DNA of 64,000 nucleotides from Nitrosopumilaceae archaeon (GCA_965203465.1 CBDBCR010000003.1:544001-608000), one strand, 5' to 3'. Positions 3,265 to 40,203 are shown, counted from the first letter of the stretch. Translations and numbers: made by a program. The notes: generated by a model from the letters alone, not told the origin.

Positions 3265-3427
3265 GTTCCCCGAGCCGGCGGCAGAGCCGCGGGGCAGGCG
3301 CGAAGTGGCGGCCTCCGGATCAAGAACCGGCACGGCCGGAAAACGCAGAGTCGTGTACAGCGTCCGCTAGGGCCCGTAAAAAATGGACCGTCGCGCATAG
3401 TCTCTATGTGTGTGGCTGCACCAGTGT

Positions 3428-6408
<2,981 letters not shown>

Positions 6409-6565
6409 TACACTGGCAGTACAGCCACATATTACACGACTATGCGCGACGATCATCGCAAGGGGCCCTGCCGGGCCTCCCCGCTACATCCTTCATCCGC
6501 CACTTTCGTGGCGCATTGCACCGATGGTTCGCGGAAAGACATGCGCGCACCCGCTTGTGTTCCTA

Positions 6566-8036
<1,471 letters not shown>

Positions 8037-10139: not shown

Positions 10140-13441
<3,302 letters not shown>

Positions 13442-13445
<4 letters not shown>

Positions 13446-16400
13446 GTCGCCCTACCTGATATCTCGTCATAGTACGCCGGGGCCATCTTTCTCACTTCGC
13501 CGTAAAATCCGCGCAAGACCTTCCGGTTTTTCCAATCTGCCGCATCTGCTGCCAATAAGGATCGATCTTCGTCAAACTTGAAAGAATCCAATATACGACG
13601 ATAATCTTGCTTTGATAGTCCATATTCTTTAGCGACGAGTGCATCAAGTTTTGCACACACTTGTATTCTATCTGGTGGAGCGAGTACGGCATTCTTAATC
13701 CGGAGTGATTCTGCAAATGCATCAAACTCAGGTGAACCTACAGACAATCTTGCTGCAAGATTTGCAATTTCAGTATTGTGTGTTTTCGGAATAGGGGTAT
13801 TCTTGATAATGGTGGGAACGTCTAGCCGTATTTTTGAGCGCATAATAAAATCAAACGTCATAGAATTTAATACACCTGACAAATATGCGATGTTTTGGTT
13901 ATATTTATCAGTTAGTTCTACTTTGCCGTTATGTGTAATTATAATCGACTGCAGAGTATCTGTATGAAATGTGCGGGGCGGTATTATAGCCGCAATAGTA
14001 GTTCGTGTCACAGTAGACGTAGAAACACGATGAAATGTCAATTGATATGCATTGAAAAAATCCCTATAGTGTTTTTTGTACACTCGTTTGGACGACAGTC
14101 TTGCCAGTCCGTCTGATTCAGATACGGTAAACTTGTGTGTAGCAAAGTTACTGTCAAACTGCGATGTGTGTTTACCTTCCAAGACTGGGCGGCCATTACC
14201 ATCAGTCTTTAACAGATCAGCATCTTTCACTCTATGTAATCCACTAGCCAACCCAACATCCCAACCGTCGACGCCTAAACCAAGAGCGTTGTGCTTTGAG
14301 AGTTTTTCTAACAAAAGAGCAGTCTCGTGATTTACCTCTGTAATTATAAGATCGGTTGGAGATGTGTTTCGTATGCGCTGTTTTGAGCGCATAGTAAATT
14401 TTTCTTTTTCAGTTGCTTTGTTTTCCAGTGTCGCTAATTGGTGAAGGTAGAAGCCAGAAGGGATTTGGTCAGAGCCTTTTGTGTTTCTTATAGTTAAAAG
14501 TACAAATCGGAATTCGCGATGTATGGGGAAGATTTTGTGTTTGTTTTCATATACATAGATTTGGCGAATATCCAGTTCTAGACATTTTTTACGTAAATTT
14601 ACTGTACCAACACTTGTTAGAATTTGAGATGGAATCAATATAGAAATTAAACCGTTTTCAGATACTAAATTCAACATACGCTCAAGCATAATTTTCCATA
14701 TATCTCGATCTCCCACACTCTGTAGTTTGTAGGTTTTATAAAATGTGTTTCTATCATTAAAGGATTTTATGTATGTTTGGTATTCTTCCTTTATTTCTTT
14801 ACGTTCTGCGTAAATTTCCACAACACGTTTTTCTTTTTCTTTATGGGTGCTGAGACTAGCAAACACGGGATCATGTTGAATGAAAAACTCATCCATATAT
14901 GGTTTGACTTTATCCCATGGAGGATTTCCGATTACTAGATCAAATCCTTTCTTTTTATCAGTAAAAGCATCCATCATTTCTAGATCCCAATGGAAGAATG
15001 AATATTTATTTCTAAGTTCGTTGATCGTGTTTCGGATCCGATTTGTTGGCACATCGGGTTTTGTAGAACCTTCTGAAATTTTTCCCAAAGCTCTTGCGAA
15101 CAATTTGGGCGTCCGTTTAGGGAGCAAGCTTTTATCGATTACAAATGCAGTTAGTGCATCAAGCTCAGTTCTATGCGGAGTCATTCTTTTTTCATATTCT
15201 GCATATGCATCTTCACTAGAACGCACAGCATCGACCGTAACATCCGCATTGCGACTAATGTCTCCTAGAATAGATCCTGCTTTCTCAGTTTTCATATATA
15301 CATCCAGATCTGTGTCATGTTTTGACCCCATGTCGGATCGCCACATGCCAATCGTGGAGTCGCCATGCTTGATGTGATGGTTAAGATAAGTCAACGGAAC
15401 CCCTATGGCAAACGAGTCCAACCACAACGACAGTTTGCACAAATCTACGGCTAGAGGATTCAAATCAACGCCAAATATACAACGCTTCATAACGCGTCGT
15501 TTTAGCAACACATCGTCTGACAACAGAGACGGATTTATTGTAACTCCTCGGTTCTGTTGCTCTTGAACCACCAACCTGCGATCGTCGTCGATCTCAGCCA
15601 AGAGTGGATGTCCAGCATGTTTCTTCAACATCCGAGTAGCCCACTCAGTTATTCTGCTGAGCGCCTCAACTAAGAAATGTCCACTCCCCATAGCCGGATC
15701 CAGTACTTGTACATCAAGTAGCCTATCTGTGCAAACGCACCGGTTAGTTTCGCTAGGATTCTTGTGGTATGCTTCTAGATCTTCTGCGATGAGAACTTCA
15801 CGCTCGGCGAGTATGGGCTCTAGGCCCTGTCGCACCAAAAACCTAACCATTTCATCTGGCGTGTAGTAGCTAGCGGTAGATTTGCGTAGTGCTATGCCTC
15901 CTTTGGAAGCCAAGTATAGATCGTTCTTTTTGTATGAGTATGCGCCTGATTGCTTAGTCTTTATCTCACGGACTTTTCCATTATCTTCTAACAACATAAT
16001 GTCTTTCTTAGCCTGTCGAACTCCATACTCCATAAGCGTCTCGTAGACGCTACCCAAATGCCGCACGTTTAAACTGGCATAATCGATAGCAGATCCATCC
16101 CTCTCCAATAATCCACGCAACGCTCGCACTATGTGTTCGTTCCTGACACAGCGGTTGTCGATCTGCGGCATGTTCCTAAATAGGTCGCCACCATACTGCG
16201 GCAGATTATGTTCCTTGCTACCACACCTGATCCCACGGAAAAGATTTAGAAGTTTATTCCAGCAATCCATATCATCCGGCCTAGACTCGGAATCGTCTAG
16301 ACTGTTTCGGATTGCCTGTAGAGATATTGGTCGGTACTTTTCATCTTTGGCAGGTAACAAATTCCTAGACTCGGCGTACAAAATAAACCAGATACGGTAC

Positions 16401-17443
16401 ATTATGGCGAGTGCTGCTCTTCGACCTGCCTCCAACTCTGCGGCCGAAAACGTCTTTTTCATGTCGTGATCCAATATGCCCTTTACGATATCCAGGAAAG
16501 TGCCGTTAGCACTCATTATTCGCGAAGCCATATTGTCTTCTAAATCTCTCGCGTATTCCCTACTGTTTGCGAAGAATGCTTCAATGTCGCGCCTTCCTTC
16601 TACCACTGCGTACGCGCTTGATCCAAATATTGCTGCAAGGTACTTTGCAGCAGATTTCCTGTTCGGATCCAAGAAAGCGGCAAAATAGTTGGTGGTAGAT
16701 GCAGACATCTTGGTGGAGTACAGGCGCCAGTCCGTGCCGTTGGTCAGTATCGACCACGTGCTATGTTTTAGCGCATCGACTGCCAAGTAGCTCGGTGCCA
16801 CCTCGGTGTCGCTCTTGCGCACGTTGAGATCGTCACGCGGAGTAACCGTTATGGATACCGTGTCGTCTATCTTTTGCGTACCGTGTTCGGGTTTTATATT
16901 CCAGCCCAGTTTCTTTAGTGCATCCCACACATTCCCAGCTGCCAAGACGCTTTCAGCGACCTTGTTTGCGTCCATCCTAGTATCATTCCATATGCGCTCT
17001 TTCAGGTAGTGGTTCTCGAAGAGACCTCGATTGTCAAAGTCCTTGGTAGCCGTCTGGAGTGCATGGATTGCTTCCTTCATGGCCACCAGCGCCCTAATCT
17101 TGGTAGTAGCGGTAGCAAAACCACAGGATGACAGAACAGCGGCGACGCGCTCGCGCTCGATGCTAGATCCGACTCTTGCGGTATCCGACAGTTTGGCTGC
17201 TTTTAACACGATTGTGTTATGAGGTGACACCAAGATGATGCACTCGGGAATGCCACGCACCGCTTTCTTGACTTCAGATATATTCTTTGGACCCTTTTCG
17301 ATCAGTATTACGGGAATGGGTGGTTTCTTGGAGCCGGCCCGCCTAAAGCCGTACGAGACCCACGTTTCGTGCAGATCGGTTTCGTGCCGATCGTCCGGGT
17401 TTACCCCCACGGCGGCCAGCAGTCCGGCCTCCGAGTGGGTCAA
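13442..17443 (-). CDS. Large Type IIG / Eco57I-like N6-adenine DNA methyltransferase with target recognition domain
   Basis: SYYTP, VLDPAMGSGHFL (motif I), FGVDLNP, GNPPW (motif IV), ILTNGTDWRLY; TTG start. Confidence 0.9.
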
Positions 17444-17483
17444 AGCCCAAGGGCCGGCTGGCCAAGATCAGTACCTGAGTAAT

Positions 17484-17537
17484 AGGTAGAACGAGGTAGA
17501 ACGAGGTAGAACGAGGTAGAACGAGGTAGAACGAGGT
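17484..17537. repeat. Perfect 10-bp tandem repeat (AGGTAGAACG) x5 plus AGGT
   Basis: Read directly; lies 41-94 nt upstream of the methyltransferase TTG. Confidence 0.97.
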
Positions 17538-17743
17538 TTCACTCGTCAGTAGGGAGCCTTGTTCAGAGGTGATTTTGTGGTTTGGGTGTAGGGCCATTGT
17601 TACTTGGGCCTGAATTCGGTCTTTTTTATAGATTGATGTGTGCCCTATCGAAATCCGGCCAATGGCGCCAAGCCGTCAACGAGTTCATGTCACGGTACTG
17701 TAGCACTGCCGTGCAAGGATCCGCCCCCCACCCCCGGGCCAAA

Positions 17744-17786
17744 GTTAGCCCAGGCTAACAAATTTAGCCCATGCTAACTTTTAATA
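17744..17786 (+). promoter_or_regulatory. Tandem palindromic operators (DtxR/MntR-like) abutting the TATA box of the multicopper oxidase-ZIP operon
   Basis: GTTAGCCCAGGCTAAC (17744-17759) and TTTAGCCCATGCTAAC (17763-17778), followed by TTTTAATA about 23-30 nt before GTG 17809. Confidence 0.7.
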
Positions 17787-17808
17787 CGGCGCCGCGGGGC
17801 CAAAATCC

Positions 17809-18819
17809 GTGAGGTCGAAGGTAGGGCTGGCGGTGCTGGCCCTCTCGTGCGCCCTGGCGCTGTACGTGGCGATACCCGAGGCTATCGACGCGCAGCGCGA
17901 AAAGACGACGTTCGTGACTCACTCGGGCAGGGTGGTTTCCACGTCCGGCGATATACTCGATCCGCTCTACTCTGCGCAGACAGTCGAGTTCGACCCCATG
18001 GAGTACCTGCGCGAGTTCGACTACGGCGAGGTCTCGCAGCTGCCCGACGGGCGCACCCTGCGCGAGTACCGCATAACGGCAGAGGACGACCGGATCATGG
18101 AGATCTCGCCGGGCGTCTATTACAACGTCTGGACGTACAACGGGGCGGTGCCGGGCCCGACCATACGCGCCACCGAGGGCGACGTGGTGCGGGTGCACTT
18201 TGTCAACGAGGGATCGAAAGAGCACACCATCCACTTCCACGGCACGCACCCGGCCGCCATGGACGGCGTCTTCGAGGTCGTCGGCGGCGGAGGGGGCCGC
18301 TTCACCTACGAGTTCGAGGCAGGGCCGGTCGGCGTGCACCCGTACCACTGCCACGTCATGCCCCTCGAGGAGCACATCATACACGGCCTGTACGGCATGT
18401 TCATCGTGGACCCCAAGGAGGGCAGGGCGCCGGCAGACGAGATGGTCATGGTACTGAACGGCTTCGACACCGACTTTGACGCAGAGAACAACCTGTACGC
18501 GGCCAACACCGTCCCGTTCTACTACCAGCACCACCCCATCGAGATAGAAAAGGATCGGCTGATCAGGATATACGTGGCCAACATGGTAGAGTTCGATCCC
18601 ATAAACAACTTCCACCTGCACGGCAACCTGTACCACTATTACCCGACCGGCACCGACACCGTCCCGTCCGAGTTCACCGACATGATAACCCTTTCGCAGA
18701 CCGAGCGCGGCATAATGGAGTTTTCGTACGAGCACCCCGGCAGATACCTCTTCCACGCCCACAAGGTGGAGTTTTCGGAAAAAGGGTGGGTGGGCCTGTT
18801 CCTGGTAAGGGAGACATGA
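17809..18819 (+). CDS. Secreted two-domain multicopper oxidase
   Basis: Signal peptide; HTIHFHG, YHCHVMPLEEHI..G.YG, NNFHLHG and FHAH copper motifs. Confidence 0.92.
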   Translation: MRSKVGLAVLALSCALALYVAIPEAIDAQREKTTFVTHSGRVVSTSGDILDPLYSAQTVEFDPMEYLREFDYGEVSQLPDGRTLREYRITAEDDRIMEISPGVYYNVWTYNGAVPGPTIRATEGDVVRVHFVNEGSKEHTIHFHGTHPAAMDGVFEVVGGGGGRFTYEFEAGPVGVHPYHCHVMPLEEHIIHGLYGMFIVDPKEGRAPADEMVMVLNGFDTDFDAENNLYAANTVPFYYQHHPIEIEKDRLIRIYVANMVEFDPINNFHLHGNLYHYYPTGTDTVPSEFTDMITLSQTERGIMEFSYEHPGRYLFHAHKVEFSEKGWVGLFLVRET

Positions 18820-19949
18820 GGGCGCGCACCGCGGCGGCCGGCGCGGCCCCGCTGGCGCTGGTGGTGCTGCTGATGGCCTACGTGCTCGGGCCCGGCGCGC
18901 AGGTGCTCCAGTCGGGCGTGCCGCTGCCCGAGCTTTCCATAGAGAGGGTGGAGTTTTCCGGCACGGAGGTGCTCGCCACGGTCCGCAACACCGGGCCCGA
19001 GCCGGTCCGGATAGTCATGGCCGACGTCAACGACCGCATCCAGCCGGCCGCCGTGGAGCCGGACGGAGATTTGGGCAGGCTCGAGGCGGCCCTGGTCAGG
19101 ATACCGTTCGAGTGGAACGAGGGCGAGCCCTACCAGATCGGCATAACGGTCTCGGACGGCACGCGCTTTTCCAGGGACATCGGCTCGGCTGCCCCCTCGC
19201 CGGGCCCCGGCCTCGCCGGCCTACTGGCTCTGGTCGGCGCGTACGTGGGCATCGTCCCCGTGATGATAGGGCTGCTCTGGCTGCCGTTCATGCGCAGGAC
19301 CTCGCAGGCGTGGCAGGTCTTTTTCCTCTCGCTGACCGCCGGCCTGCTGCTCTTTCTGGGGCTCGATTCTATAGAAGAATCCCTCGGCATATCCGCAGAG
19401 TGGCTGGCGCCCGCGTTCAACGGGGTGATGCTGGTGGCAGTCTCGGTGTCGGTCTCGTTCGCCGCCCTCCACTACGCGGGCGCGCGCGCGTCGGCCGGCG
19501 GCAGGGGCCCGGCCGCGGCAGCCCTCATGCTGGCGGGCAGCATAGGCCTGCACAACATGGGCGAGGGCCTCGCCATAGGCGGGGCCCTGGGCATGGGCGC
19601 CGTCGCGTTCGGGGCCTTTTTGGTGGCAGGCTTTGCCCTCCACAACGTCACCGAGGGCGTGGCCATCGCGGCCGCGTCCCTGCGCGCGCGGACCGGAACA
19701 ATTCGGCTGGTGCTGCTCGGCCTGCTCGCCGGCGTGCCTGCCATACCGGGGGCCTGGGCCGGCGGGTTCGCCTACTGGCCGCTGGCCTCGGTGGTGTTTT
19801 TGTCGGTCGGGGCCGGCGCTGCCCTGCAGGTGGCAGTCATCGTGGCAAGGCAGCTCCGCTCGCAGGGGTCGCTCTCGTCGGCGCCGGCCGCGGCGGGTTT
19901 CGCCTCTGGCATGGTCGTAATGTACGCCACGGGCCTGCTGGCAGGCTAG
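18816..19949 (+). CDS. ZIP family divalent metal transporter with N-terminal extracellular domain
   Basis: GLHNMGEGLAIG and ALHNVTEGVAI ZIP motifs; ATGA overlap with the oxidase gene. Confidence 0.9.
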   Translation: MRARTAAAGAAPLALVVLLMAYVLGPGAQVLQSGVPLPELSIERVEFSGTEVLATVRNTGPEPVRIVMADVNDRIQPAAVEPDGDLGRLEAALVRIPFEWNEGEPYQIGITVSDGTRFSRDIGSAAPSPGPGLAGLLALVGAYVGIVPVMIGLLWLPFMRRTSQAWQVFFLSLTAGLLLFLGLDSIEESLGISAEWLAPAFNGVMLVAVSVSVSFAALHYAGARASAGGRGPAAAALMLAGSIGLHNMGEGLAIGGALGMGAVAFGAFLVAGFALHNVTEGVAIAAASLRARTGTIRLVLLGLLAGVPAIPGAWAGGFAYWPLASVVFLSVGAGAALQVAVIVARQLRSQGSLSSAPAAAGFASGMVVMYATGLLAG

Positions 19950-21286
19950 CCCGGCTCCGGGTGTATCGTCACCACCGAGCCGGGGAACATCGAGCGCAGC
20001 CTGCCCTCCAGATCTGACATGGCGTCGTGGACCTCGGACAGCGGCATCGATCCCCGGAACGAGCACGTCATGTCCACCTTTAGCGCCCCGCCCATCCGCA
20101 GGCAGACCACGCGCCCCACGCCGAGCACCGCCGGGTGGCCCCCGGCGGCCCTGCGTATCTGCGGCTCCGAATCCGAGGCCTCGGCCATGCCCTCCGGTAT
20201 CCGCACGTACGGCTCCAGGTGGACGGTTATCCGGTCGATGCCGCCCACGCTCCCCAATACCCGACGCTCGACCGCGTCTGATATCCGGTGCGCCGCCTCC
20301 AGGTCCTTGGAGCCGTCCACCATGACGTGCAGGTTGGCAAGCACCGCCGGCCCGGCCCTGTACACCGAGGCGTTGTGCACGCCGAGCACCCCGTCGACTC
20401 CGAGCGCGGCGCGCTCGAGCAGCTCGCCTGCCGGCACGCCCTCCCAGGCCGGCTCGAAATGCACGGTGACCGAGGCGCCCGGCACGCGCGAGGCTATCGA
20501 TTCTGCGACCGCGTCGCCGATCTCGTGCGCTTTTTCGAAACTCTCGCTGCCGCGCACCGAGACGGTCGCGTCGACGAAGACGGCCTCGCCGGAGCGGCGC
20601 ATCAGTATCCGGCCGGCCCCCGATACGCCCGGCGTCGAGAGCGCCGCCGCGCGCGCCCGGGCCACCAGCTCCGGCGGTATCGCGTCGGTCAGTTCCAGGG
20701 CCGCCCTCCGCACGAGCGAGACGCTCAGGGCGGCCAGCAGGCCCGAGAGCACCAGCGCGGCCGCAGAGTCGGCGCCGGCCACGCCCGACGATGCAAGCGC
20801 CACGCCGGCCACGGCAAGGCCCGTCGAGCCCAGATCCGCCGCCGCGTGGTAAAAGTCGGCCCGCACGGCGGGGCTGCCCGCGTGCCGGCGCAGCAAGACC
20901 ATGCGGAAGACGTCCACGCACATGGCGTACCCGCCGCCTGCAAGGCCCAGCAGGCCGACCGGCGCGGGCGGTCCGCGCAGGCCCGAAAGGGCCCCGTAGG
21001 CGAAGAACGCGGCGGCTGCCAGCAGCGCCAGCCCCCCGAACAGGGAGCCGAGCGACTCCATCTTGCCGTGCCCGTAGGTGTGCTCGGCGTCGGGCGGCCG
21101 GGCGGCCAGCTTCACGGCCAGCAGCAGCATGAGCGTGACGAACGCGTCGAGCAGGGCGTGGGCGCTGTCGGTTATCAGGGCCAGGCTGCCCGAAAGGAGG
21201 CCGAATACGAGCTCTACGGCAAATGCCGAGATTATGGCCAGAAACGAGATCTTTAGCACCTTGGAGCGGCCGGAGAGCGCGGGCAA
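19946..21286 (-). CDS. Cation diffusion facilitator with repeated C-terminal dimerisation domains
   Basis: DSAHALLD, HTYGHGKME, HAAAD; three tandem modules ending in H-x-E-P. Confidence 0.9.
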   Translation of the reverse strand: MPALSGRSKVLKISFLAIISAFAVELVFGLLSGSLALITDSAHALLDAFVTLMLLLAVKLAARPPDAEHTYGHGKMESLGSLFGGLALLAAAAFFAYGALSGLRGPPAPVGLLGLAGGGYAMCVDVFRMVLLRRHAGSPAVRADFYHAAADLGSTGLAVAGVALASSGVAGADSAAALVLSGLLAALSVSLVRRAALELTDAIPPELVARARAAALSTPGVSGAGRILMRRSGEAVFVDATVSVRGSESFEKAHEIGDAVAESIASRVPGASVTVHFEPAWEGVPAGELLERAALGVDGVLGVHNASVYRAGPAVLANLHVMVDGSKDLEAAHRISDAVERRVLGSVGGIDRITVHLEPYVRIPEGMAEASDSEPQIRRAAGGHPAVLGVGRVVCLRMGGALKVDMTCSFRGSMPLSEVHDAMSDLEGRLRSMFPGSVVTIHPEPG

Positions 21287-21348
21287 CCCGCGCCCGGGGG
21301 CGCGGCTGATATTTAAGACATAAATACTCGCATGGGGAGGCCGGCCTG

Positions 21349-22842
21349 ATGAAGGCTCTGGCGGTCGCGGCGTTTGCGGCGGCCCTCGTGCTCGCCGCCG
21401 GGCTCGCCCAGGAATCCCACGCCCAGAACTGCCGGGCCGGCGAGGTCATGTCAGGCGGGCAGTGCGTGCCGGCCGTCAGGGAAAGCGCCAACACGATGAA
21501 CCTCTCCGTCGAAAAGACCGTAAAGGACGCCGACGCGTGCGCGTCCGGCGACGAGGGCGCAAAGTGCCGCCAGTCTGCAGCAGAGACGGACAGGATATTC
21601 GACGACGGCGACGTCATTGTGCTGAAAGGGACCGTCAGCTCGTTCACCGAAAAGAGCGCGGTGACTGTCATAATACGCGACCCAGCCGGCAACATCGCCC
21701 ACTTTGCCCAGGCAAACCCCGTAAAGTCCACCACCGCCAACATCGGCACCGACACCAATCCGCGGTCGATACCCGGCGCGTTCGAGATCACCGTAAAGCC
21801 CATAGGTCCCAAATGGAAGGCCGAGGGAGACTACAAGGTCAGCGCCTCGTACGGCACCGACAAGTCCGAGATCACGTTTGCGTTCACCGGCAGCGACGTA
21901 GGCGGCGCCTCCAACTTGGGCGAGGTTGTTCCCCCCGCTGACGGCGGCGAAAACGGCGACGACGGCACCGATCCCCCGCCCCCGGCCGTGGAGGAAAAGC
22001 TCGTCGTAAAGGAGGTTCTAGCCGACGGCATGTACGTCATATCCGAAGAGCAGCTGGACTTGGTTCCGGCCACCTCGATACGCGGCCTTGCCGATAACGG
22101 CACCGACTACAAGGTGGATCCGAAGGCGCTCGGCCTTGCCGACGACAGGATAGAGGTTCCGCCGCCAAAGCCGGTCCTCGAAAAGCTCGCCGTAAAGGAG
22201 GTCTTGGACGACGGCTCTTACGTGGTCTCCGCCGATCAGCTGGGCCTCATCGATCCCACCTCCATACTCGGCCCGGCGGCCGACGGCGCCGATTTCAAGG
22301 TGGATCCGGCAAAGACGGGCCTGTCGGCCGACAGGGTGACGCTTCCCCCGCCAAAGCCAGTTGTTACTACGCCCCCCGAGCCCGAAAAGCCGGAGATGCC
22401 CGAAAAGCCGGTGTGCGGAGAGGGCACGGTGGCCGACGCGGACGGCGTCTGCCAGCTGATACAGCAGGACAACAGGTCCGGCTGCCTCGTGGCCACGGCG
22501 GCCTACGGCAGCGAATTCGCCCCGCAGGTGCAGGCCCTGCGCGAGGTGCGCGACGGCACGCTGTACTCGACCGAGGCGGGCGCCTCGTTCATGTCCGGCT
22601 TTAACGAGATATACTATGCGTTCTCGCCGGCCGTGGCCGACCTAGAGAGGGAGCACCCGCTCTTCAAGGAGGCCGTGCGCCTGGCGCTCTCCCCGATGCT
22701 CGCCTCGCTGGGCATAATGTCGCTAGCGGAGCCCGGCTCGGAGCAGCAGGTCCTCGGGTACGGCCTCGCCGTCATAGCCCTCAACCTGGGCATGTACGTC
22801 GGGGTTCCTGCCGGCGCCGTGGCGGCCGCGCGCAGGCGCTGA
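21349..22842 (+). CDS. Secreted CFI-box-CTERM domain protein with an internal 62-aa duplication
   Basis: Signal peptide; GCLVATAAYGSEFAPQVQALREVRD C-terminal domain plus TM helix; repeat period 186 bp (21994 and 22180). Confidence 0.85.
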   Translation: MKALAVAAFAAALVLAAGLAQESHAQNCRAGEVMSGGQCVPAVRESANTMNLSVEKTVKDADACASGDEGAKCRQSAAETDRIFDDGDVIVLKGTVSSFTEKSAVTVIIRDPAGNIAHFAQANPVKSTTANIGTDTNPRSIPGAFEITVKPIGPKWKAEGDYKVSASYGTDKSEITFAFTGSDVGGASNLGEVVPPADGGENGDDGTDPPPPAVEEKLVVKEVLADGMYVISEEQLDLVPATSIRGLADNGTDYKVDPKALGLADDRIEVPPPKPVLEKLAVKEVLDDGSYVVSADQLGLIDPTSILGPAADGADFKVDPAKTGLSADRVTLPPPKPVVTTPPEPEKPEMPEKPVCGEGTVADADGVCQLIQQDNRSGCLVATAAYGSEFAPQVQALREVRDGTLYSTEAGASFMSGFNEIYYAFSPAVADLEREHPLFKEAVRLALSPMLASLGIMSLAEPGSEQQVLGYGLAVIALNLGMYVGVPAGAVAAARRR

Positions 22843-23200
22843 GCGGTTTTAGCGGGCCCGCATTTGCAGTTTGCGATTCTCCGGCCGGGTCGATGTACAG
22901 GGGCAGCGAATGGCGCGCAAGAAGCGAGTCACCGGACGGCTCGGATCTGCCAGGGCGCTGTAAAGAACGCCCGGGCCGGCGCGCGGCCGTTCGGCCGGAG
23001 CCCGCGGGAATACGCCCCCGGCGGGCCCTAGCCTGCCGCTGGGGCCCGCGCCCGCGGCTTTGTTCGGCAATTCGTATTTTCGTGCCTGCGCAGTAGCCGG
23101 ATCGGCCAAAAAACGGCTCCGTTCAGGCACGGATCGCGGAATTACCGAACAAAGCCGCGCCCGCGCCATGTTATTATACGGGGGGCCCCGCAGAAAGGCC

Positions 23201-23521
23201 GTGAAGGTAGAGTACGAAGAGTTTGAGAACGTGCAGGACTTGTTCGCGTACCTTGCCGCCGTGGCGCCCCCCATGAAGAACACGTTCCCGGTCAACGCGT
23301 ACAAGGGCCACGTCTCGTCCATCGTGCCGCTCGGCTCGAGCGCCGAGGTGTACCTGATGTTCTTCGCAAAGGGCTCGCTGGAGCCGGGCGTCTACGAGTT
23401 CGACATCAGTAGCATGGAGTACAGAAAGGTCGATGCCGTGGAGCGCGCAGACAAGACCTACTTTGTGTGCGTGGCCCCAAAGCGCAACACCATTGCCGAC
23501 GAGGCCATGGCAAAGATCTAG
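23201..23521 (+). CDS. Conserved hypothetical protein
   Basis: GTG start about 25-30 nt after TTATTATA; host-like codon usage (VKVEYEEFENVQDLFAYL...). Confidence 0.7.
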   Translation: MKVEYEEFENVQDLFAYLAAVAPPMKNTFPVNAYKGHVSSIVPLGSSAEVYLMFFAKGSLEPGVYEFDISSMEYRKVDAVERADKTYFVCVAPKRNTIADEAMAKI

Positions 23522-25095
23522 AGCTTTTTGGTGGCTATGCTCGGCGCCGAGACCGAGCGGCTCCTCGCGTACTTTTCGACGATCTCGTCGGGCAGCCTGC
23601 CGTTGAACAGGTCCTTGCAGAGCCCGCGCAGGTACCTCATTATGGCCCAGCTGCCCGCCTTTATGATCCCGTACATGAACACCTTCATCGGCGGGCCGTA
23701 CGTCTTGTTGCGCAGTATGATGGGTATGATGTCGTTTATGACGCGCAGGTTGTTCTCCCAGCACTTCCAAAAGAGCGTGAACTGCGCCTCGTTGAGGTTG
23801 CCAAAGTGCATCGAGTTCTTTTCGCCAAAGTCCTGGTAGAGCAGCGGGGCCACCAGCCCCCTAAAGTCCATCGCCCTAAAGTCGGCCATCATGTCTATGG
23901 TGTCCTGCACGTCCTCGGGCGTCTCGTCGGGCCACCCGATGATGATGGTGGCCGCGGGGAACCAGTGGTTTTGGTTCAGTATGCGGGCGCCCTCGCGCAC
24001 CACGCTGCCCCACTCCTCGGGGGCGAACGGCTTTGTCTTTACGCCCAGGTGCTTTTTGACCATCTTTGGCGCCACCGTCTCTATCCCGAGGTTGGTGGCG
24101 AGCCACCTGCCCGTCTCGTGCTGCCTGTTTATCGTAGATATCTGGCGCATCAGTTCCGGATCGGAGGCGACCGCCGAGAATGTCATGTGCGTCGTGCCGA
24201 CGAAGTTGGCCCCGAGGCCCTTCAGCCCCGACCACAGGTCGGTGATGGCGTCCCTGTTTGGTATAAAGTCGCGGTTGTCGCACCCGTACAGCAGCATCTC
24301 GTCGGAGTGCAGCCATATGGAGTCGAAGCCGTAGTCTAGGTTTATCTTGGCCTCGCGCTGCAGGCGGTCGACGGGGAGATCCTTTTTCGACCTCTTGTTT
24401 ACGTCGCAAAAGTCGCACCCGCGCCCGCACCCGCGCATGGCCTCGATGAGCGAGTTGACCGTCGGGCCGCGTATCTCCGGTATGTTCTGTATGTTCTTCA
24501 CGAAGCAGTGCATGATCTCGGGCGCGTCCCCCTTTTCCAGGTCGTGGAACAGGTCAAGGGCCAGCTCGTCGGCCTCGCCGACCACCACGGTGTCTATGCC
24601 GTGTATCTTCATGCGGTCGTGCTTTGCGAGCTCCCACGCCCCGTTGCCGCCCACCACGACGTGAAAGTCGTACTTTTTCTTCAGCTGGATTATCTTTGCG
24701 CACATGCGTTTGAACTTCATGGCCACGTACGAGAGCTTTTCGGGCGACATGGTGGTCGTCACCGGCGCCATGCCGAGCGGATCCATCACGTTGATGCCGA
24801 CCACGCGCGTGTCCGGGCCGACCGACTTTTCGAGCATGTCCGGATTCGCCATGAATATCTCGTCGCTCGAGTACCCCTGGCGCAGCGCGCCCTCGACCCG
24901 GCGCAGGCCCACCTGCGCGACCTTTACCTCGCCGGTGGCCTTGTCGGTCTCGACCGCCGGGCAGAAGACCTTGTCGAAGACCCACTCTGGCAGCACCTCG
25001 TAGGGGCCGCAGGCGATGAACCCGTACAGGAAGTTGCCGCGGTAGTTGGTCATCAGGCTCCTGTCCGCGGTGAGCACTATCCTCTTTCCTGACAA
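23518..25095 (-). CDS. B12-binding radical SAM protein, GDGT ring synthase (GrsA/GrsB)-like
   Basis: RGCGRGCDFC (CxxxCxxC); IVLTADRSLMTNY N-terminus, MDPLGMAP and VVGGNGAWE resemble the Grs family from memory. Confidence 0.75.
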   Translation of the reverse strand: MSGKRIVLTADRSLMTNYRGNFLYGFIACGPYEVLPEWVFDKVFCPAVETDKATGEVKVAQVGLRRVEGALRQGYSSDEIFMANPDMLEKSVGPDTRVVGINVMDPLGMAPVTTTMSPEKLSYVAMKFKRMCAKIIQLKKKYDFHVVVGGNGAWELAKHDRMKIHGIDTVVVGEADELALDLFHDLEKGDAPEIMHCFVKNIQNIPEIRGPTVNSLIEAMRGCGRGCDFCDVNKRSKKDLPVDRLQREAKINLDYGFDSIWLHSDEMLLYGCDNRDFIPNRDAITDLWSGLKGLGANFVGTTHMTFSAVASDPELMRQISTINRQHETGRWLATNLGIETVAPKMVKKHLGVKTKPFAPEEWGSVVREGARILNQNHWFPAATIIIGWPDETPEDVQDTIDMMADFRAMDFRGLVAPLLYQDFGEKNSMHFGNLNEAQFTLFWKCWENNLRVINDIIPIILRNKTYGPPMKVFMYGIIKAGSWAIMRYLRGLCKDLFNGRLPDEIVEKYARSRSVSAPSIATKKL

Positions 25096-25338
25096 CTCTC
25101 TTGGCGTGCCCGGCCGATGTTATATATCGCTTCCTAGCCGGCCTTGGCGGTCGGGCCCGCCCAAGCTCGGACAGGTCTGGAAAACGGGCTGTTCAGGCAG
25201 ACGGAGAACCTCCAGACGCACGGCAACCTGCAAGGCAGGGCATCGGTTCCGTGCAGGCATCGATCGGCTGTCCGAAGCCAAACCCGCTGTGAAACTAGAA
25301 ATATACCCGAACGGATGACGGGTTGAATGTTGCAGGTT

Positions 25339-25369
25339 AGCTCTGTACAGCTCTGTACAGCTCTGTACA
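25339..25369. repeat. Perfect 10-bp tandem repeat (AGCTCTGTAC) x3 plus A
   Basis: Read directly; lies 53-83 nt upstream of the Type ISP ATG. Confidence 0.95.
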
Positions 25370-25421
25370 TGAAGACCACCCTGTAGGGAATCGAGCGCAT
25401 GAGCGGCCGGAGGGGGCATGA

Positions 25422-28400
25422 ATGCCTCGGCCCAGCACGTTCGACGAAGTTTTACGCGATATCAGGGCGAAGTCAAAGACGACGCGTGAACTGGGCGACA
25501 GGTTCGAACGCATCATCCTCGATGTTTTGAAAAACGATCCGTTGTACACAAACAGATTCGACGGCGTGTGGATGTGGTCTGAATGGGCCGCGAATAACGG
25601 CATCTCTGAAAAGCACGGCACCGGACATGATTTGGGAATAGACATCGTCGCAAGAGAGAGGGCCGGGGGCGAATTGTGCGCCATCCAGTGCAAATGCTAT
25701 TCTGACGACACGATACTCGAGATGGGGCCGGTGAACAGCTTCATCTCGGCCGGAACGTCGTACGGAATGAAAAACTACATCTTGGCGTGCACGGGGCCCG
25801 TAAATTCCAACGCGCGGGCAAAGCTGCTCGGCGTAAAGTGCCAGATGATGACCAAGGACGATCTGCGCTACAGGCTGGACTGGAAACAATACCCGCGCAA
25901 GATAGTGAGGCCGCCCCCCAAGGAACTCCGAGACTATCAACGCGCCGCGTTCGATGATGTCGTCAAGGGCTTCCGCAAAAGCGATAGGGGCAAGATGATA
26001 ATGGCGTGCGGCACCGGCAAGACGCTGGTTTCGCTGCGCGTGGCCGAAAAGCAGGCAGGCAAGGGCGGACTCGCGTTGTACCTCGTCCCTTCAATTTCTT
26101 TGATCATGCAGAGCATGCGGGAGTGGTCAGAGAATGCGCGCATGCCACACTACTACATGGCCGTCTGTTCTGACAAGACGGTGCGCAACTCGGAGCAGGG
26201 AACCCTGACCGAGCTGGAAGCACCCGCGTCCACGGATCCGCCAACGCTGAGGGAACGAATCTCCAAGATCAGCAAGGACTCTCTCAACGTGATATTTTCC
26301 ACATATCATTCCGTGGAGGTGGTCCAAAAGGCTCTGGATGGCCGGGAGATAGACGTAGTGTTTTGCGACGAGGCGCATCGCACGGCCGGCGTCGACGAGC
26401 CAGGCTTTGAGTCGTACTATACTCGGATCCACTACGACCGAAACATCAGGGCCGCCAAGAGGCTCTACGTTACCGCCACGCCCCGCATATACACAGAAAG
26501 GATAAAGGGCAAGGCAGAGCAGTTGGAGAAGATCACGATATCGATGGACGACGAGTCCATATACGGCCCCGAGTTCCACAACCTTTCGTTCTACGACGCG
26601 GTGCACAAGTACAAGGCGCTGTGCGACTTCAAGGTGAGGGTGGCCGTCATGGACGGCAACACAATGGACAGGCTGGTACAGAAGGCACAGGCCGGCGACG
26701 AGGCCATCATGCCGCTCGACGAAAAGACCCTGATGGCCTCGGTCTGGCACGCCATACGGCATCCGGGCGCTGACGACAGCAAGGGTATGCTCCAGCGGGT
26801 CATCATGTTCTGCGACATGATAAACTCGTCGAAGATCGTCGCCGGCGAGCAGATAAACTACAGGAAAGACATACGCGAAGATCCCGAGCAGTTTGAAAAG
26901 ACGCGCGAGATAGACAAGCAGAGATCGTTTGAGAACGTGGTAAAGCACGTGCAAAAGGTAATGGGCAACAAAGACGGCACCAAGCCCGAAACAAAACACG
27001 TCGACGGAGGAGACAGTGCTCAGGCGAGGCGGGGGCGGCTCGAATGGCTAAAGACCAGCGAAGACGATCCGCACGTATGCAGGATACTGTCCAATGCGCG
27101 CTGCCTTTCGGAAGGGGTAGACGTGCCGGCGCTTGACGGGGTCGTGTTCATGAATCCCAGGCGCTCCGTGGTCGACGTGGTTCAAGCGGTGGGCCGAGTC
27201 ATGCGCCAGTCAGACGGCAAGGAATACGGTTACGTCATATTGCCGGTCGCAATACCTGCAGGAGTCGACATAGGGCAAGCGCTAGACGACAGCAAACACT
27301 TCAAAGTAGTGTGGCAGGTGCTCAATGCACTACGTTCGCATGATCCGAATCTTGCCAGCGAAATAAACAAGCTTGTGTTGACAGAGTCGCACACAGATAG
27401 CGAAGTAACCAACCGCATCATCATACGGCACGCGTACAGCCACGGCTTGCGCTCTGCTGAGATGCCAGAACCCAAGATGATCAACGGGATCACGTCCAAG
27501 ATTATTCAAAAGGTGGGAGACATCAACTATTACGACAAGTATGGGGAAAAGCTAGGCACAGCTGCTAACACTATCGAAGCACGCATCCAAAATCGGATAA
27601 AAACCAACACACGAGCCAAGATAGAGGTAGAAAAGATTCATGCCGACCTGAAAGAAATGGTTGGAGATGCTGTCACATTTAATGCTACCGTGCAGATCAT
27701 AGCCCAGCACATCGTACTCTCACGCGTCTTTGATCAGCTTTTCTCTGGACAGTTTACTGCGCACAATCCTATAGCCAAAGTTCTAGATGTGGTAACCAAA
27801 AAGATCGGCATGCAGGAAGAGCTGCGCGATCTGGCTGGATTCTACGAAGATGTACACTACGAGCTGGACAGGATAGAGACCAGAGAAGAGCGGCAAAACT
27901 TTATCAAAAAGATATATGGTAATTTCTTCGAGAGCGCCGACAAAAAGGGTGCCGAGCGACACGGTATAGTCTACACTCCCATCGAAGTGATCGATTTCAT
28001 CATAAACAGCGTTGACGTACTGCTCAGGAAGCACTTTGGCGTGCGCTTTAACGACAGGGCCGTCAAAGTGCTCGATCCGTTCGCAGGAACCGGTACGTTT
28101 CTGACTAGATTGCTGGAATCTGGTCTGATAGATGACAACCTCTACGAGAAATACGAAAAAGACCTGTTCGCAGACGAGCTGATCCTGCTGGCCTACTACA
28201 TAGCCACGGTGAACATAGAAACCACGTATTCGAGCCTACGCAGGGGTGGCAGGTACGTTCCGTTCAAAGGGATCAGCTACACGGACACGCTGCGGATCAA
28301 CCCGCAGTACCGCGAAAAAGCACGGCACAGACATGAGCAATCCATGATAGACAGCCAGTTCAGAGCGGCGCACGAAAGGATCAGGCAGCAACGAGGATCC

Positions 28401-30149
28401 CATGTGCACGTGATAATGGGGAACCCGCCCTACTCGGCTGGCCAGAGCAACTACAACGACGAGAATCAAAACATTGATTACCCGGAGTCGAACACCAGAA
28501 TAAAGGACACATACATGAAAAGGAGCAATACGGCCAACAAAGTGTCGCTCTACGATTCCTACATACGAGCTCTCCGCTGGGCCAGTGACAGGATCGGAGA
28601 CTCCGGAATTATCGCGATAATCACCAACTCACGTTTTTTGAGATCTGATGCTGGGTCAGGAATACGCGCCTCTTTAGCTGAAGAGTTCAATGAGATCTGG
28701 TGCTTTGATCTGCGCGGCGACCAGAGAACACATGGAGAAACATCCAGGCAGGAAGGAGGAAAGATATTCGGTTCCGGTTCTCGAGCCGCCGTGGCTATTA
28801 CTTTTCTTGTAAAGAACCCGAAAAAGAAAAGTTGTGTCATACGATACAAGGACATTGGTGATTGCTTGAGCCGCGAACAAAAGCTGGAGATCGTAAACGA
28901 TGCAAGAGCGATAAACGGTGTAGAGAGGTGGACGATCATAAAGCCCGACAAATATCACGACTGGTTGGAACAGCGTGGAGATAGTTTTACAAAATATACG
29001 CCTATTGGAACCAAAGCCGCGAAGTTGGGCAAGGACAATCGCGTTATTTTTAGAATGTATTCTGCAGGGATTAAAACACATCGTGATGAATGGGCGTACA
29101 ACTCGTCAACGAAAGAATTAACAAAAAACATGAAACGGCACATAAACTACTGCAATTCACAGAATTTAGACAAGCCGATCATTGATCACAAGCGAGCGAA
29201 GTGGACCGGCACGCTTTCAGAAAGACTGCGACGCTCAAAACCATCCTTTGCCGAAGACAAGATTCGCATTGCGTTACGCAAGCCATTTTTTAAACAACAT
29301 CTATATTTTGACCGCGTTTATAACGAGTCGCAATATCAGATACCAAGATTTTTTCCCAACAACAACACAAAAAACCCCACCATATGCGTGCCTTACAAGT
29401 TTAGGGGAGAATTGTCAGTTTTCATAACCAATAACACGCCAGATCTGCACATAATTGCAGCTAACCAATGTTTTCCACTATACATCTACGACAACGGCAC
29501 CAAGAAAGAAAACATTACAGATCAAATTCTCTTCGAGTACAGGAAACACTACAACGATATCAGAATAACCAAAAATGACATATTTTATTATGTTTATGCA
29601 TTTCTGCATCATCCAAATTATAAGGAAAAATTCGCAAACAACCTGACACGTGAGCTACCCCGCATCCCAATGGCACCAGACTTTGCAACGTTCCGTAATG
29701 TTGGTAAGGCTCTTTCAGATCTACACCTCAACTTTGAGACTTGTGAGCGGCACAATCTTGGCAAACCAAAATTGAACCCCGCAGAGTTTACAAGACTGTC
29801 CTTTGGAAGAAAGAGATCTAAAGAAAATCATACCATCATTCGTGTAAATGGTGCTGTACTATTTGACAAAATACCAGAAACTACATATCGCGTCGACGGC
29901 CGCACCCCACTCGAATGGATCAAAGACAGATACAAGAAAGAAATACACGATGAAAAGGAGATCGTCAACGATCCGTGCACAGGCACGGACATCGTGGCCG
30001 TCATAGAGCGGGCCGTCCACGTAGGCCTAGAGTCCGAGCGCATAATCAACACGCTGCCCAAAGAGTTCGAGCCCAGCCCCGAATGGGAGCCGAGCAGCGA
30101 CGGCCTCGACAAATACACGAAAGGCGATCCCTACCAGTCAAAGATCTGA
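25422..30149 (+). CDS. Type ISP restriction-modification enzyme (LlaGI/LlaBIII-like)
   Basis: Mrr-like DLGIDIV...AIQCK; MACGTGKT, DEAH, TATP, QAVGR; DPFAGTG and GNPPY; C-terminal TRD. Confidence 0.95.
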   Translation: MPRPSTFDEVLRDIRAKSKTTRELGDRFERIILDVLKNDPLYTNRFDGVWMWSEWAANNGISEKHGTGHDLGIDIVARERAGGELCAIQCKCYSDDTILEMGPVNSFISAGTSYGMKNYILACTGPVNSNARAKLLGVKCQMMTKDDLRYRLDWKQYPRKIVRPPPKELRDYQRAAFDDVVKGFRKSDRGKMIMACGTGKTLVSLRVAEKQAGKGGLALYLVPSISLIMQSMREWSENARMPHYYMAVCSDKTVRNSEQGTLTELEAPASTDPPTLRERISKISKDSLNVIFSTYHSVEVVQKALDGREIDVVFCDEAHRTAGVDEPGFESYYTRIHYDRNIRAAKRLYVTATPRIYTERIKGKAEQLEKITISMDDESIYGPEFHNLSFYDAVHKYKALCDFKVRVAVMDGNTMDRLVQKAQAGDEAIMPLDEKTLMASVWHAIRHPGADDSKGMLQRVIMFCDMINSSKIVAGEQINYRKDIREDPEQFEKTREIDKQRSFENVVKHVQKVMGNKDGTKPETKHVDGGDSAQARRGRLEWLKTSEDDPHVCRILSNARCLSEGVDVPALDGVVFMNPRRSVVDVVQAVGRVMRQSDGKEYGYVILPVAIPAGVDIGQALDDSKHFKVVWQVLNALRSHDPNLASEINKLVLTESHTDSEVTNRIIIRHAYSHGLRSAEMPEPKMINGITSKIIQKVGDINYYDKYGEKLGTAANTIEARIQNRIKTNTRAKIEVEKIHADLKEMVGDAVTFNATVQIIAQHIVLSRVFDQLFSGQFTAHNPIAKVLDVVTKKIGMQEELRDLAGFYEDVHYELDRIETREERQNFIKKIYGNFFESADKKGAERHGIVYTPIEVIDFIINSVDVLLRKHFGVRFNDRAVKVLDPFAGTGTFLTRLLESGLIDDNLYEKYEKDLFADELILLAYYIATVNIETTYSSLRRGGRYVPFKGISYTDTLRINPQYREKARHRHEQSMIDSQFRAAHERIRQQRGSHVHVIMGNPPYSAGQSNYNDENQNIDYPESNTRIKDTYMKRSNTANKVSLYDSYIRALRWASDRIGDSGIIAIITNSRFLRSDAGSGIRASLAEEFNEIWCFDLRGDQRTHGETSRQEGGKIFGSGSRAAVAITFLVKNPKKKSCVIRYKDIGDCLSREQKLEIVNDARAINGVERWTIIKPDKYHDWLEQRGDSFTKYTPIGTKAAKLGKDNRVIFRMYSAGIKTHRDEWAYNSSTKELTKNMKRHINYCNSQNLDKPIIDHKRAKWTGTLSERLRRSKPSFAEDKIRIALRKPFFKQHLYFDRVYNESQYQIPRFFPNNNTKNPTICVPYKFRGELSVFITNNTPDLHIIAANQCFPLYIYDNGTKKENITDQILFEYRKHYNDIRITKNDIFYYVYAFLHHPNYKEKFANNLTRELPRIPMAPDFATFRNVGKALSDLHLNFETCERHNLGKPKLNPAEFTRLSFGRKRSKENHTIIRVNGAVLFDKIPETTYRVDGRTPLEWIKDRYKKEIHDEKEIVNDPCTGTDIVAVIERAVHVGLESERIINTLPKEFEPSPEWEPSSDGLDKYTKGDPYQSKI

Positions 30150-39433: not shown

Positions 39434-40203
39434 GCCTCCGGTCGTGGTTCGAGGGGAGGGGGCGGGTCTTGGTGGCCCTTTCGGGCGGCGTGGACAGCGC
39501 CCTCGTCGCGCACGCGGCGCGCTCTGCGCTAGGCGGCGGGGCACTGGCCGTCACGGCCGACTACCAGACGCTGGCCTCCGAGGAGCTGGCCTCGGCCCGG
39601 CAGGTGGCAGGGCAGATAGGCATAGAGCACCAGGTCGTCCGGTACAGCGAGCTGGAAGACGAGGTGTTTGCGCGCAACGGCAAGGACAGGTGCTTCCACT
39701 GCAGGACGGCCCTCGGCGGGCGGCTGCTGGAGATGGCCGCGGGCCGCGGCATCGGTACCGTGGTGGACGGCACGCACGCGGGCGACGAGGGCGAGTACCG
39801 GCCCGGCATCGAGGCGATGCGCGGCGCCGGCGTGCGCAGCCCGCTCGCCGAGCTCGGCATCGCAAAGCCGCAGGTGCGCAGGATGGCGAGGGAGGCTGGC
39901 CTCGAGGTGCACGACCGCCCGTCCAACTCTTGCCTGGCCTCCCGGATACCCTGGGGGCGGCGCGTGACCGCAGAGCGCCTGCTGCGCGTGGAGCTCGGCG
40001 AGCGGATGGTGCGCGAAAAGTTCGGCCTGCGGCAGGTGCGCGTGCGGGACGCGGGCGGGCGGGCGCGCATAGAGGTGATGCCCCCCGACGTGGAGCGCGT
40101 GAGCGCCGGGCGCAGCGCGCTGGAAAACGGGTTCGCCGCGCTGGGTTTTTCGTCGCTCGAAGTCGACCCGCGCGGGTACTCGCCGGGGGGCGCCAACGCT
40201 TGA
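39430..40203 (+). CDS. larE: ATP-dependent sulfur transferase
   Basis: SGGVDS PP-loop, RCFHC, YRPG, SPL, CLASRIP, QVRVR; TTG start overlapping the larC stop. Confidence 0.92.
   Translation: MSLRSWFEGRGRVLVALSGGVDSALVAHAARSALGGGALAVTADYQTLASEELASARQVAGQIGIEHQVVRYSELEDEVFARNGKDRCFHCRTALGGRLLEMAAGRGIGTVVDGTHAGDEGEYRPGIEAMRGAGVRSPLAELGIAKPQVRRMAREAGLEVHDRPSNSCLASRIPWGRRVTAERLLRVELGERMVREKFGLRQVRVRDAGGRARIEVMPPDVERVSAGRSALENGFAALGFSSLEVDPRGYSPGGANA

Follow-up and report, generated by a model that had tools for sequence, protein, structure and literature searches.

Non-triplet tandem repeats at the 5′ ends of methyltransferase genes in a Nitrosopumilaceae archaeon: probable contingency loci of restriction-modification

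Two perfect tandem arrays with 10-bp units, here named A1 and A2, stand shortly upstream of two large restriction-modification (R-M) genes in a 64 kb stretch of DNA from a Nitrosopumilaceae archaeon (GCA_965203465.1, CBDBCR010000003.1:544001-608000). This whole stretch is called the window, and positions are counted from its first letter unless a contig or locus is named. When the complete assembly, 2.26 Mb in 4 contigs, was scanned, arrays whose unit length is not a multiple of three (non-3n) were found to be associated with methyltransferase genes far beyond chance. The arrays are very probably slippage-prone contingency loci for the R-M genes, whatever the way in which their copy number is read out. 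As for that read-out, phase-dependent translational coupling between a repeat-bearing leader open reading frame (ORF) and the R-M gene may be the switch mechanism, a proposal drawn from the sequence and evenly poised between right and wrong. Somewhat less probable is the wider reading, in which a modular three-state switch (a leaderless leader ORF, a non-3n minisatellite and a stop-restart junction) would have been installed repeatedly at the 5′ ends of R-M genes, at internal domain junctions by way of short repeats, and at many G/C-tract loci.

Arrays at methyltransferase genes

Tandem Repeats Finder (TRF) returned 53 rows for the window. A1 (17484..17537, minus strand) has 5.4 copies of a 10-bp unit, ACCTCGTTCT on the gene strand, and A2 (25339..25369, plus strand) has 3.1 copies of the 10-bp unit AGCTCTGTAC, both with 100% matches, as a first-pass annotation of the window had described. 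Its further statement that these were the only perfect short arrays in the 64 kb was nearly exact; the only other perfect array with at least three copies was a 15-nt GCGG run of 3.8 copies at 40051-40065. The placement of the arrays shortly upstream of large methyltransferase genes also held, A1 ending 40 nt before the TTG start of gene 1 (17443, minus strand) and A2 ending 52 nt before the ATG start of gene 2.

Over the whole assembly TRF found 16 perfect arrays with at least three copies, exactly three of which have 10-bp units: A1, A2 and a further array, A3, on contig 2, situated 58 nt upstream of the sole other full-length Type ISP gene (1539 aa). A separate scan, which admitted perfect arrays with units of 4-60 bp, a minimum of 2.8 copies and a minimum length of 24 bp, gave 22 in the genome, 8 with a non-3n unit and 14 with a 3n unit, and these were set against 28 methyltransferase-bearing ORFs that had been defined beforehand, independently of the arrays, by three Pfam searches. 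Seven of the 8 non-3n arrays, with units of 10, 10, 10, 13, 14, 16 and 17 bp, lie at the 5′ side of such an ORF, from 381 nt inside to 378 nt upstream of its first start; the eighth, an 8-bp unit in 3.6 copies, has its nearest methyltransferase gene 45 kb away. Among the 14 3n arrays there is not one at a methyltransferase start, the nearest being more than 5 kb away. Since the surroundings of the 28 starts (±400 nt) make up about 1% of the genome, 7 out of 8 has by our arithmetic a probability of about 1e-13. The enrichment of arrays at R-M genes foreseen in the first-pass annotation was thereby found genome-wide, and it was repeated in related genomes (below). The 10-bp unit, taken there as the defining feature, was given up, as units range from 7 to 19 bp and their common property is being non-3n; a significance of 10 bp as one helical turn was rejected on the same range of lengths.

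Four of these arrays lie outside the window. A4 has a 13-bp unit. It belongs to an N6/N4 methyltransferase gene and is read in frame as part of the 5′ coding region, with no restart codon, and would represent the classical frameshift version of the repeat switch. A5 (14 bp) is found at a methyltransferase of 713-842 aa, A6 (16 bp) at a weakly Eco57I-like protein of 924 aa, and A7 (17 bp in 35 copies, 595 bp) at an MmeI-family Type IIG enzyme. At C3:748694-773003 these four arrays, with 13-, 14-, 17- and 16-bp units, are found within 25 kb, each at a separate methyltransferase or Type IIG gene, together with a DDE transposase gene and a weak match to a pPIWI-associated nuclease, and this region looks like a defence island rich in repeat switches.

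Protein searches over 151 genomes of the same archaeal family matched the Type ISP enzyme of gene 2 in 26 genomes and gene 1 in 18, this genome included in both. Perfect upstream arrays (unit at least 7 bp, at least 2.5 copies, within 250 nt upstream) were found in 8 of the 22 Type ISP loci with an N-terminus, the A2 and A3 loci included, with units of 10, 10, 7, 7, 11, 8, 19 and 19 bp. Upstream arrays were likewise found in 4 of 14 gene-1-family loci with an N-terminus, namely A1 and, in three other genomes, a 10-bp unit in 3.9 copies, an 11-bp unit in 4.7 copies and a 16-bp unit in 3.4 copies. Between homologous loci the units are unrelated in sequence. This genome and its relatives together provide 15 independent upstream arrays, and not one has a 3n unit, though the finder took 9-, 15- and 42-bp units elsewhere.

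The distribution bears on the view that the arrays are functionless slippage products hitch-hiking on horizontally acquired low-GC R-M islands. The GC content of both R-M gene stretches in the window (0.41-0.54 against about 0.65-0.70 in the surroundings) and the transposase genes near the array cluster outside the window are in its favour. However, homologues of different genera carry unrelated units in the same slot relative to the start, every array is non-3n and most lack stops on the coding strand, the remainder of the islands is without such arrays, and the 14 3n arrays elsewhere avoid R-M genes, so that hitch-hiking is judged to be quite unlikely.

Leader frames, stop-start junctions and promoter position

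If the arrays act through translational coupling, transcription would start about 27-30 nt past an A/T-rich TATA-like block, at or beside the ATG of the leader ORF (leaderless-type initiation), and ribosomes would translate through the array, where all frames are open. Slippage by one non-3n unit, gained or lost, would then rotate the leader ORF through three downstream phases. In one phase the leader would end at a stop that abuts or overlaps the R-M start (TGA followed directly by ATG in Type ISP genes, TTGA in gene 1), and terminating ribosomes would re-initiate there; in the other two it would stop 24-55 nt upstream or cross the start out of frame. The outcome would be a heritable and reversible switch, probably with three levels of R-M expression. 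The transcription start, the translation of the leader ORF, the re-initiation and the identity of the 'on' phase are steps that we infer.

At locus 2 the gene strand of A2 is without stops in all frames and lies inside leader ORF 2 (25327..25386, plus strand), which opens at ATG 25327 and, in the assembled three-unit state, closes at TAG 25384-25386, 35 nt before the ATG of gene 2. In a frame model, which underlies all statements on altered copy numbers here, the addition of one unit or the loss of two moves the end of the leader to TGA 25419-25421, directly abutting that ATG, and the loss of one or the addition of two ends it at a TGA just past the array. The junction (25409..25424, plus strand) comprises the purine-rich Shine-Dalgarno-like GGAGGGGGC, the in-frame TGA 25419-25421 and ATG 25422-25424, and it is kept in the paralogous locus on contig 2. 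Gene 2 (25422..30149, plus strand) encodes a Type ISP enzyme of 1575 aa with Mrr nuclease, superfamily 2 (SF2) helicase, coupler, N6 methyltransferase and C-terminal Type ISP specificity domains (Pfam, PADLOC; Mrr_cat_2 5e-24, ResIII 1.7e-20, ISP_coupler 1.1e-16, N6_Mtase 3.5e-07, Type_ISP_C 7e-78), and is a complete enzyme with all five expected domains in one polypeptide. The A2 unit includes the palindromes AGCT and GTAC. A survey of archaeal R-M systems gives AGCT as target for a group of methyltransferases conserved in Nitrosopumilales and also in Nitrososphaerales, and GTAC as target for a group in Nitrososphaerales (PMC10609329).

Locus 1 is arranged on the minus strand, where A1 is again without stops in all frames of the gene strand. 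Leader ORF 1 (17343..17597, minus strand) starts at ATG 17597 and is 84 aa as assembled, extending in that phase 98 nt into gene 1 out of frame. One unit more or two fewer places its TGA over the TTG start of gene 1, giving TTGA (17440..17443, minus strand), and one unit fewer or two more ends it 24 nt short of the start. The first-pass claims that both arrays are stop-free inside ATG-initiated ORFs and that one additional unit brings the leader stop onto the main start were thus reproduced at both loci, the latter by the model. The leader ORFs were also considered as true N-termini of genes 1 and 2, which was rejected, as no phase fuses the leader in frame with the main ORF.

Gene 1 (13442..17443, minus strand) encodes a Type IIG/DrmMI-like N6-adenine DNA methyltransferase of 1333 aa with Eco57I and MmeI_Mtase domains (Pfam, PADLOC). 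Its partner (10140..13445, minus strand), placed downstream and overlapping the gene 1 stop by 4 nt, encodes a protein of 1101 aa with a PLD(HKD) nuclease and a SNF2 helicase, DrmD-like. The core of DISARM consists of the DrmA helicase, DrmB (DUF1998) and DrmC alongside a methyltransferase. DISARM-related matches of the pair were solely DrmMI-like and DrmD-like/HKD+Snf2. The pair is here classed as a Type IIG/DrmMI-like methyltransferase plus PLD-SNF2 partner rather than as DISARM, an assignment based on the two genes, no search for DrmA or DrmB having been made in their surroundings. The divergent intergenic region between the gene 1 leader and a multicopper oxidase gene (ORF 17809-18819, plus strand) contains a 19-bp repeat in 2.1 copies (TRF) at 17740-17778, partly palindromic as judged by eye.

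Taken together, 11 of 12 array units had no stop on the gene strand, where letter shuffles predict 7.6 such units (P=0.012), and stops occur on the opposite strand in 6 of the same 12; with three arrays found later, one stop-free and two with TAG, the count is 12 of 15. Every one of the 14 modelled loci has an ATG-initiated ORF that remains open as it enters the array, and 10 of them have a coupling phase, with the leader stop adjoining or overlapping the main start. The assembled state is the coupled phase in 3 of these 10, matching random phase. Among the 22 Type ISP loci, 9 have an in-frame stop immediately before the first start, three of them without an array, compared with 62 of 1908 ORFs of at least 300 aa in this genome (3.2%), an enrichment of about 13-fold. 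The caution in the first-pass annotation that open frames and NTGA overlaps may arise by chance applies in part: NTGA overlaps stand at 14.8% of ORF starts in the genome, so that the TTGA of gene 1 taken alone is weak evidence, whereas chance is a poor account of the Type ISP abutments and of the 7 arrays out of 8 at methyltransferase genes. Homologues of gene 1 in two related genomes (G124 and G061) also show TTGA, or TGA followed directly by TTG, with a TTG start.

In all five GC-rich loci compared (A1, A2, A3, A6 and the locus in G061), the distance from the beginning of an A/T-rich TATA-like block to the leader ATG is 31-37 nt. The block is one of 2-5 such blocks in the 400 nt searched, and the array starts 5-160 nt after the leader ATG in the same five. 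At locus 2 the block (25296..25306, plus strand) begins 31 nt upstream of ATG 25327. At locus 1 (17620..17634, minus strand) it begins 37 nt upstream of the leader ATG and is the sole such block within about 130 nt, a position which predicts a leaderless or near-leaderless transcript beginning at leader ORF 1. The archaeal TATA box is centred about 26-27 nt before the transcription start. With the block upstream of the leader ATG, the array is therefore placed inside the predicted transcript and the leader ORF is predicted to be leaderless. By this prediction the array does not lie between promoter elements, or between promoter and transcription start, at any of the five loci, and the alternative raised in the first-pass annotation, that 10 bp as a helical turn tunes promoter spacing, is disfavoured.

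The same positions bear on an operator model, in which a regulator (a C-protein or an AbrB-like factor) would bind at repeated sites along the array and the 10-bp spacing would present these sites on one helix face. The near identity of 10 bp to one helical turn suits such a model, as do the A6 array at the 3′ end of a small ORF that is AbrB-like by eye only, and a common core in the 19-bp units of three Type ISP loci of genus g18. Yet the units range over 7-19 bp and are unrelated in sequence between homologous loci, no regulator gene was found adjoining A1, A2 or A3, and the arrays are downstream of the TATA-like block. An operator function is accordingly rated as very unlikely.

A number of observations weigh against translational coupling. 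No coupling phase exists in 4 of the 14 modelled loci, namely G014 (11-bp unit), G144 and G124:C2 (19-bp units with TAG) and A6, so that the expectation of a coupling frame in further examples held for most but not for these. The A6 leader, the small AbrB-like ORF mentioned above, ends 38-75 nt before an uncertain start. TAG is found inside the 14-bp unit of A5 as well as in the 19-bp units of G144 and G124:C2. At A7 the TATA-like block adjoins the main start, and the array is probably upstream of the promoter. The Type ISP loci of G012 and G037 have a poorly conserved leader ATG 171-198 nt upstream, and their nearer TATA-like block would leave no start codon ahead of the array. Type ISP genes have a strong Shine-Dalgarno-like site of their own, making independent initiation possible. 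The start of gene 1 is ambiguous between TTG 17443 and a conserved in-frame GTG/ATG 11 codons downstream; TTG is favoured because homologues align from residues 4-8 and residues before the alternative codon are conserved among them. Predicted RNA structure did not discriminate between the explanations. An 8-bp hairpin was predicted in the contig-2 paralogue, formed between the Shine-Dalgarno-like site and codons 2-4 and with the stop-start in its loop, but z-scores of whole-leader folds were -0.29, -1.73 and +0.19, and accessibility of the start region was at percentiles 78, 46 and 20 among 1042 ORFs, the start not being unusually sequestered. The accessibility result neither favours nor excludes a dependence of downstream on upstream translation.

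A rival possibility is that the contingency loci are independent of frame. A change in copy number would then make the leader longer or shorter, reshape its fold or alter the spacing to an element further upstream, and expression would be tuned in a graded manner, as at the 7-bp repeats of the Haemophilus hmw adhesin genes. A7 lies upstream of its TATA-like block, the 19-bp arrays and A5 carry stops and allow no read-through at three or more copies, the 7-bp unit of G012 and G037 includes a stretch complementary to the Shine-Dalgarno-like GGAG that precedes the start, and the Type ISP genes are provided with their own ribosome-binding site. Against frame independence stand the absence of 3n units among 15 upstream arrays, for which our arithmetic gives (2/3)^15 or about 0.002, the stop-free units confined to the gene strand (11 of 12) and the roughly 13-fold enriched stop-start abutment. 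An effect of length or structure needs none of these three features, which thus weigh against it, and frame-independent tuning is regarded as unlikely, though less so than hitch-hiking.

Copy-number variation and other repeat tracts

The arrays vary in copy number between strains or genomes. Orthologous Type ISP loci in G012 and G037, of one genus, have a common 7-bp unit in 17.9 and 8.9 copies, respectively. The Type ISP proteins downstream of A2 and A3 are 63% identical and their leaders can be aligned; the units of A2 and A3 differ at 2 of 10 positions and each array is internally perfect, pointing to re-expansion from a single unit after divergence. The comparison of lengths across samples used assembled contigs. 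A2 has three units in contigs of runs X1 and X7, and a contig of run X3, from another sample and another study, lacks exactly 10 nt at 25339, giving a two-unit allele. The contig shows 19 letter differences from the window in about 1 kb. The allele is seen in this one contig, of depth 3.2, and the direct evidence of length variation is thin. Contigs end inside A1 at 17513 (X1) and 17508 (X3), as expected for a repeat exceeding the assembler word size, and nothing is drawn from run X8, in which 17000-17300 and 25428-26000 are without cover. Metagenome pattern scans for A1 and A2 with variable gaps gave 0 matches each. The length variation anticipated in the first-pass annotation was accordingly seen between orthologous loci and, at A2, in the one low-depth contig; switching within the population is inferred.

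At locus L034 (G033:C6), 61-95 nt upstream of a gene-1 homologue, a run of 23 G, 10 N and a run of 36 C are found in succession; this stretch, which may be an assembly artefact at a hypervariable tract, was excluded from the array count.

Repeats were also found inside the R-M genes. At about aa 1355, the same internal position in each, four related Type ISP genes differ in the short repeat that they carry (L025 5473-5548 in G099, L029 1068-1133 in G124, L030 in G018 and L031 in G039): two different 7-bp arrays of 10.9 and 9.4 copies, a GA run and a CA run. Downstream of these are a duplicated segment and an ATGA stop-start overlap where the specificity domain begins, and the frame model has three states, a full-length fusion, a stop overlapping the ATG of the specificity domain, and an early stop. 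G/C homopolymers or a TC run mark the precise points at which gene 1 homologues and Type ISP homologues are split into two ORFs, in this genome at C1:361748-361756 and C1:61487-61502, and in relatives at L037, L038 and L041 (about aa 1220-1235, gene-1 homologues), at L015 (G052, about aa 210) and at L058 and L060 (about aa 306 of Type ISP homologues). These tracts look like classical intragenic frameshift sites.

The genome contains 45 G or C homopolymer tracts of 11-18 nt against 13 of 9-10 nt, a bimodal distribution of lengths (examples of long tracts are C1:261739-261756 and C3:92725-92742). Six long tracts are at methyltransferase genes, such as C1:966321-966334 and C3:314273-314284, and one is exactly at the split of an N6/N4 methyltransferase gene. 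Others adjoin genes of the beta-helix/PKD, FG-GAP surface-type, AIPR abortive-infection, ParB_N and IS66 transposase kinds, plus housekeeping genes, and the long tracts may form a wider 'phasome'. Homopolymeric tracts across prokaryotes are the subject of a 2010 paper (PMC2831843).

Long perfect arrays of 15-bp units, related in sequence and with up to 33 copies, are located at C1:677922-678418, C3:339177-339476, C3:978423-978570 and C3:921576-921635. Three of the four are about 0.9-1.8 kb from paralogous ATPases of 1033-1067 aa with weak TrwB/TraG-type matches, the fourth is near a UvrD/PD-(D/E)XK helicase-nuclease, and the sites may be repeated modules resembling conjugative elements. A perfect 170-bp tandem array of 3.7 copies is found at C1:213110-213736, and the flanking ORFs tested were without Pfam match.

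As to the host, an Rfam search over the window returned rRNAs and one tRNA and nothing else, among them archaeal 23S and 16S rRNA genes in an operon at 3417-8036 on the minus strand, about 2 kb from the gene-1 R-M pair. Archaeal AmoA is encoded in the genome, and several sequencing runs that contain the window stretch are labelled sponge metagenome.

Comparison with known systems

In bacteria, R-M phase variation underlies bet-hedging against phages and the epigenetic phasevarions of pathogens. If the arrays described here are real switches, about half of the methyltransferase genes of this archaeon would be switchable (7 arrays and 6 long G/C tracts against 28 ORFs), which would help to explain how a sponge-associated ammonia oxidiser faces heavy viral exposure while limiting self-restriction. 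Should the modular three-state switch be correct, the population would be a shifting mosaic of restriction specificities and methylomes, and the system would be the first phasevarion-like one in Archaea. Its regulatory logic would be new, the phase of a repeat being read through termination and re-initiation at a leader ORF, and the class would be missed by surveys of the REBASE type that are limited to short units (9 nt or less) inside ORFs.

For Type I and III systems, the search for phase-variable members in REBASE was confined to tracts inside ORFs, with units from 1 up to 8-9 nt (PMC7383803), and a further REBASE survey dealt with phase-variable R-M genes carrying simple sequence repeats (SSR) (PMC5909438). 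The word 'archaea' has 0 occurrences in the available text of both, the supplements, which might list archaeal entries, being outside the scope. The survey of archaeal R-M systems mentions phase variation, in the part available, for bacteria only (PMC10609329). Two reviews treat slipped-strand R-M switching as bacterial (PMC12707154, PMC11868660), the latter, from 2025, placing archaeal distributions of phase-variable loci in future work. One preprint says, in its available part, that contingency loci have been studied in archaea and gives no detail there. In the literature searched, the survey supplements aside, no paper was found on repeat-switched archaeal R-M genes or on a repeat-bearing leader ORF coupled to an R-M start, in line with the first-pass remark that no archaeal switch of this kind was known.

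Among characterised systems, several have parts in common with the loci described here. The phase-variable Type IIG of Campylobacter jejuni is a single-polypeptide restriction-methyltransferase switched by an intragenic homopolymer frameshift. It is alike in placing a single-polypeptide enzyme on a repeat tract and unlike in being bacterial and having no long-unit array in a leader ORF. In Haemophilus influenzae, 7-bp repeats upstream of the hmw adhesin genes give graded, frame-independent expression, and repeats in the gene's own 5′ coding part at lic1 set the expression level by their frame relative to alternative start codons. Both are similar in that 5′ tandem repeats set expression, whereas neither is R-M or archaeal and lic1 is without a stop-restart junction. 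The mRNA leader of Helicobacter pylori tlpB carries a variable G-repeat that is targeted by the small RNA RepG and controls translation of co-transcribed downstream genes (PMC8295292). The length-variable leader repeat is shared, but it acts by pairing of the small RNA with a homopolymer and involves no leader ORF phase. For Type II systems in which a C gene precedes the restriction gene, an upstream ORF ending at the restriction start has been proposed to deliver ribosomes to it (PMC12707154). Unlike the leaders here, that upstream ORF is a real regulator gene, has no repeat and is not phase-variable.

Also close are the bacterial phasevarions of Type III mod and Type I hsd genes, which likewise have hypermutable non-3n repeats on methyltransferase or R-M genes, a change in copy number being expected to switch expression. 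The arrays described here read as a form of SSR phase variation and not as the wholly new kind of system that had been suggested. They differ from phasevarions in having units of 7-19 nt (10 nt at the window loci), in the position of the array, which stands ahead of the R-M ORF and inside a leader ORF of its own, in their archaeal host and in enzymes of Type ISP and Type IIG/DrmMI-like kinds. What is new relative to known SSR phase variation is thus the host domain, the unit length, the placement and the read-out.

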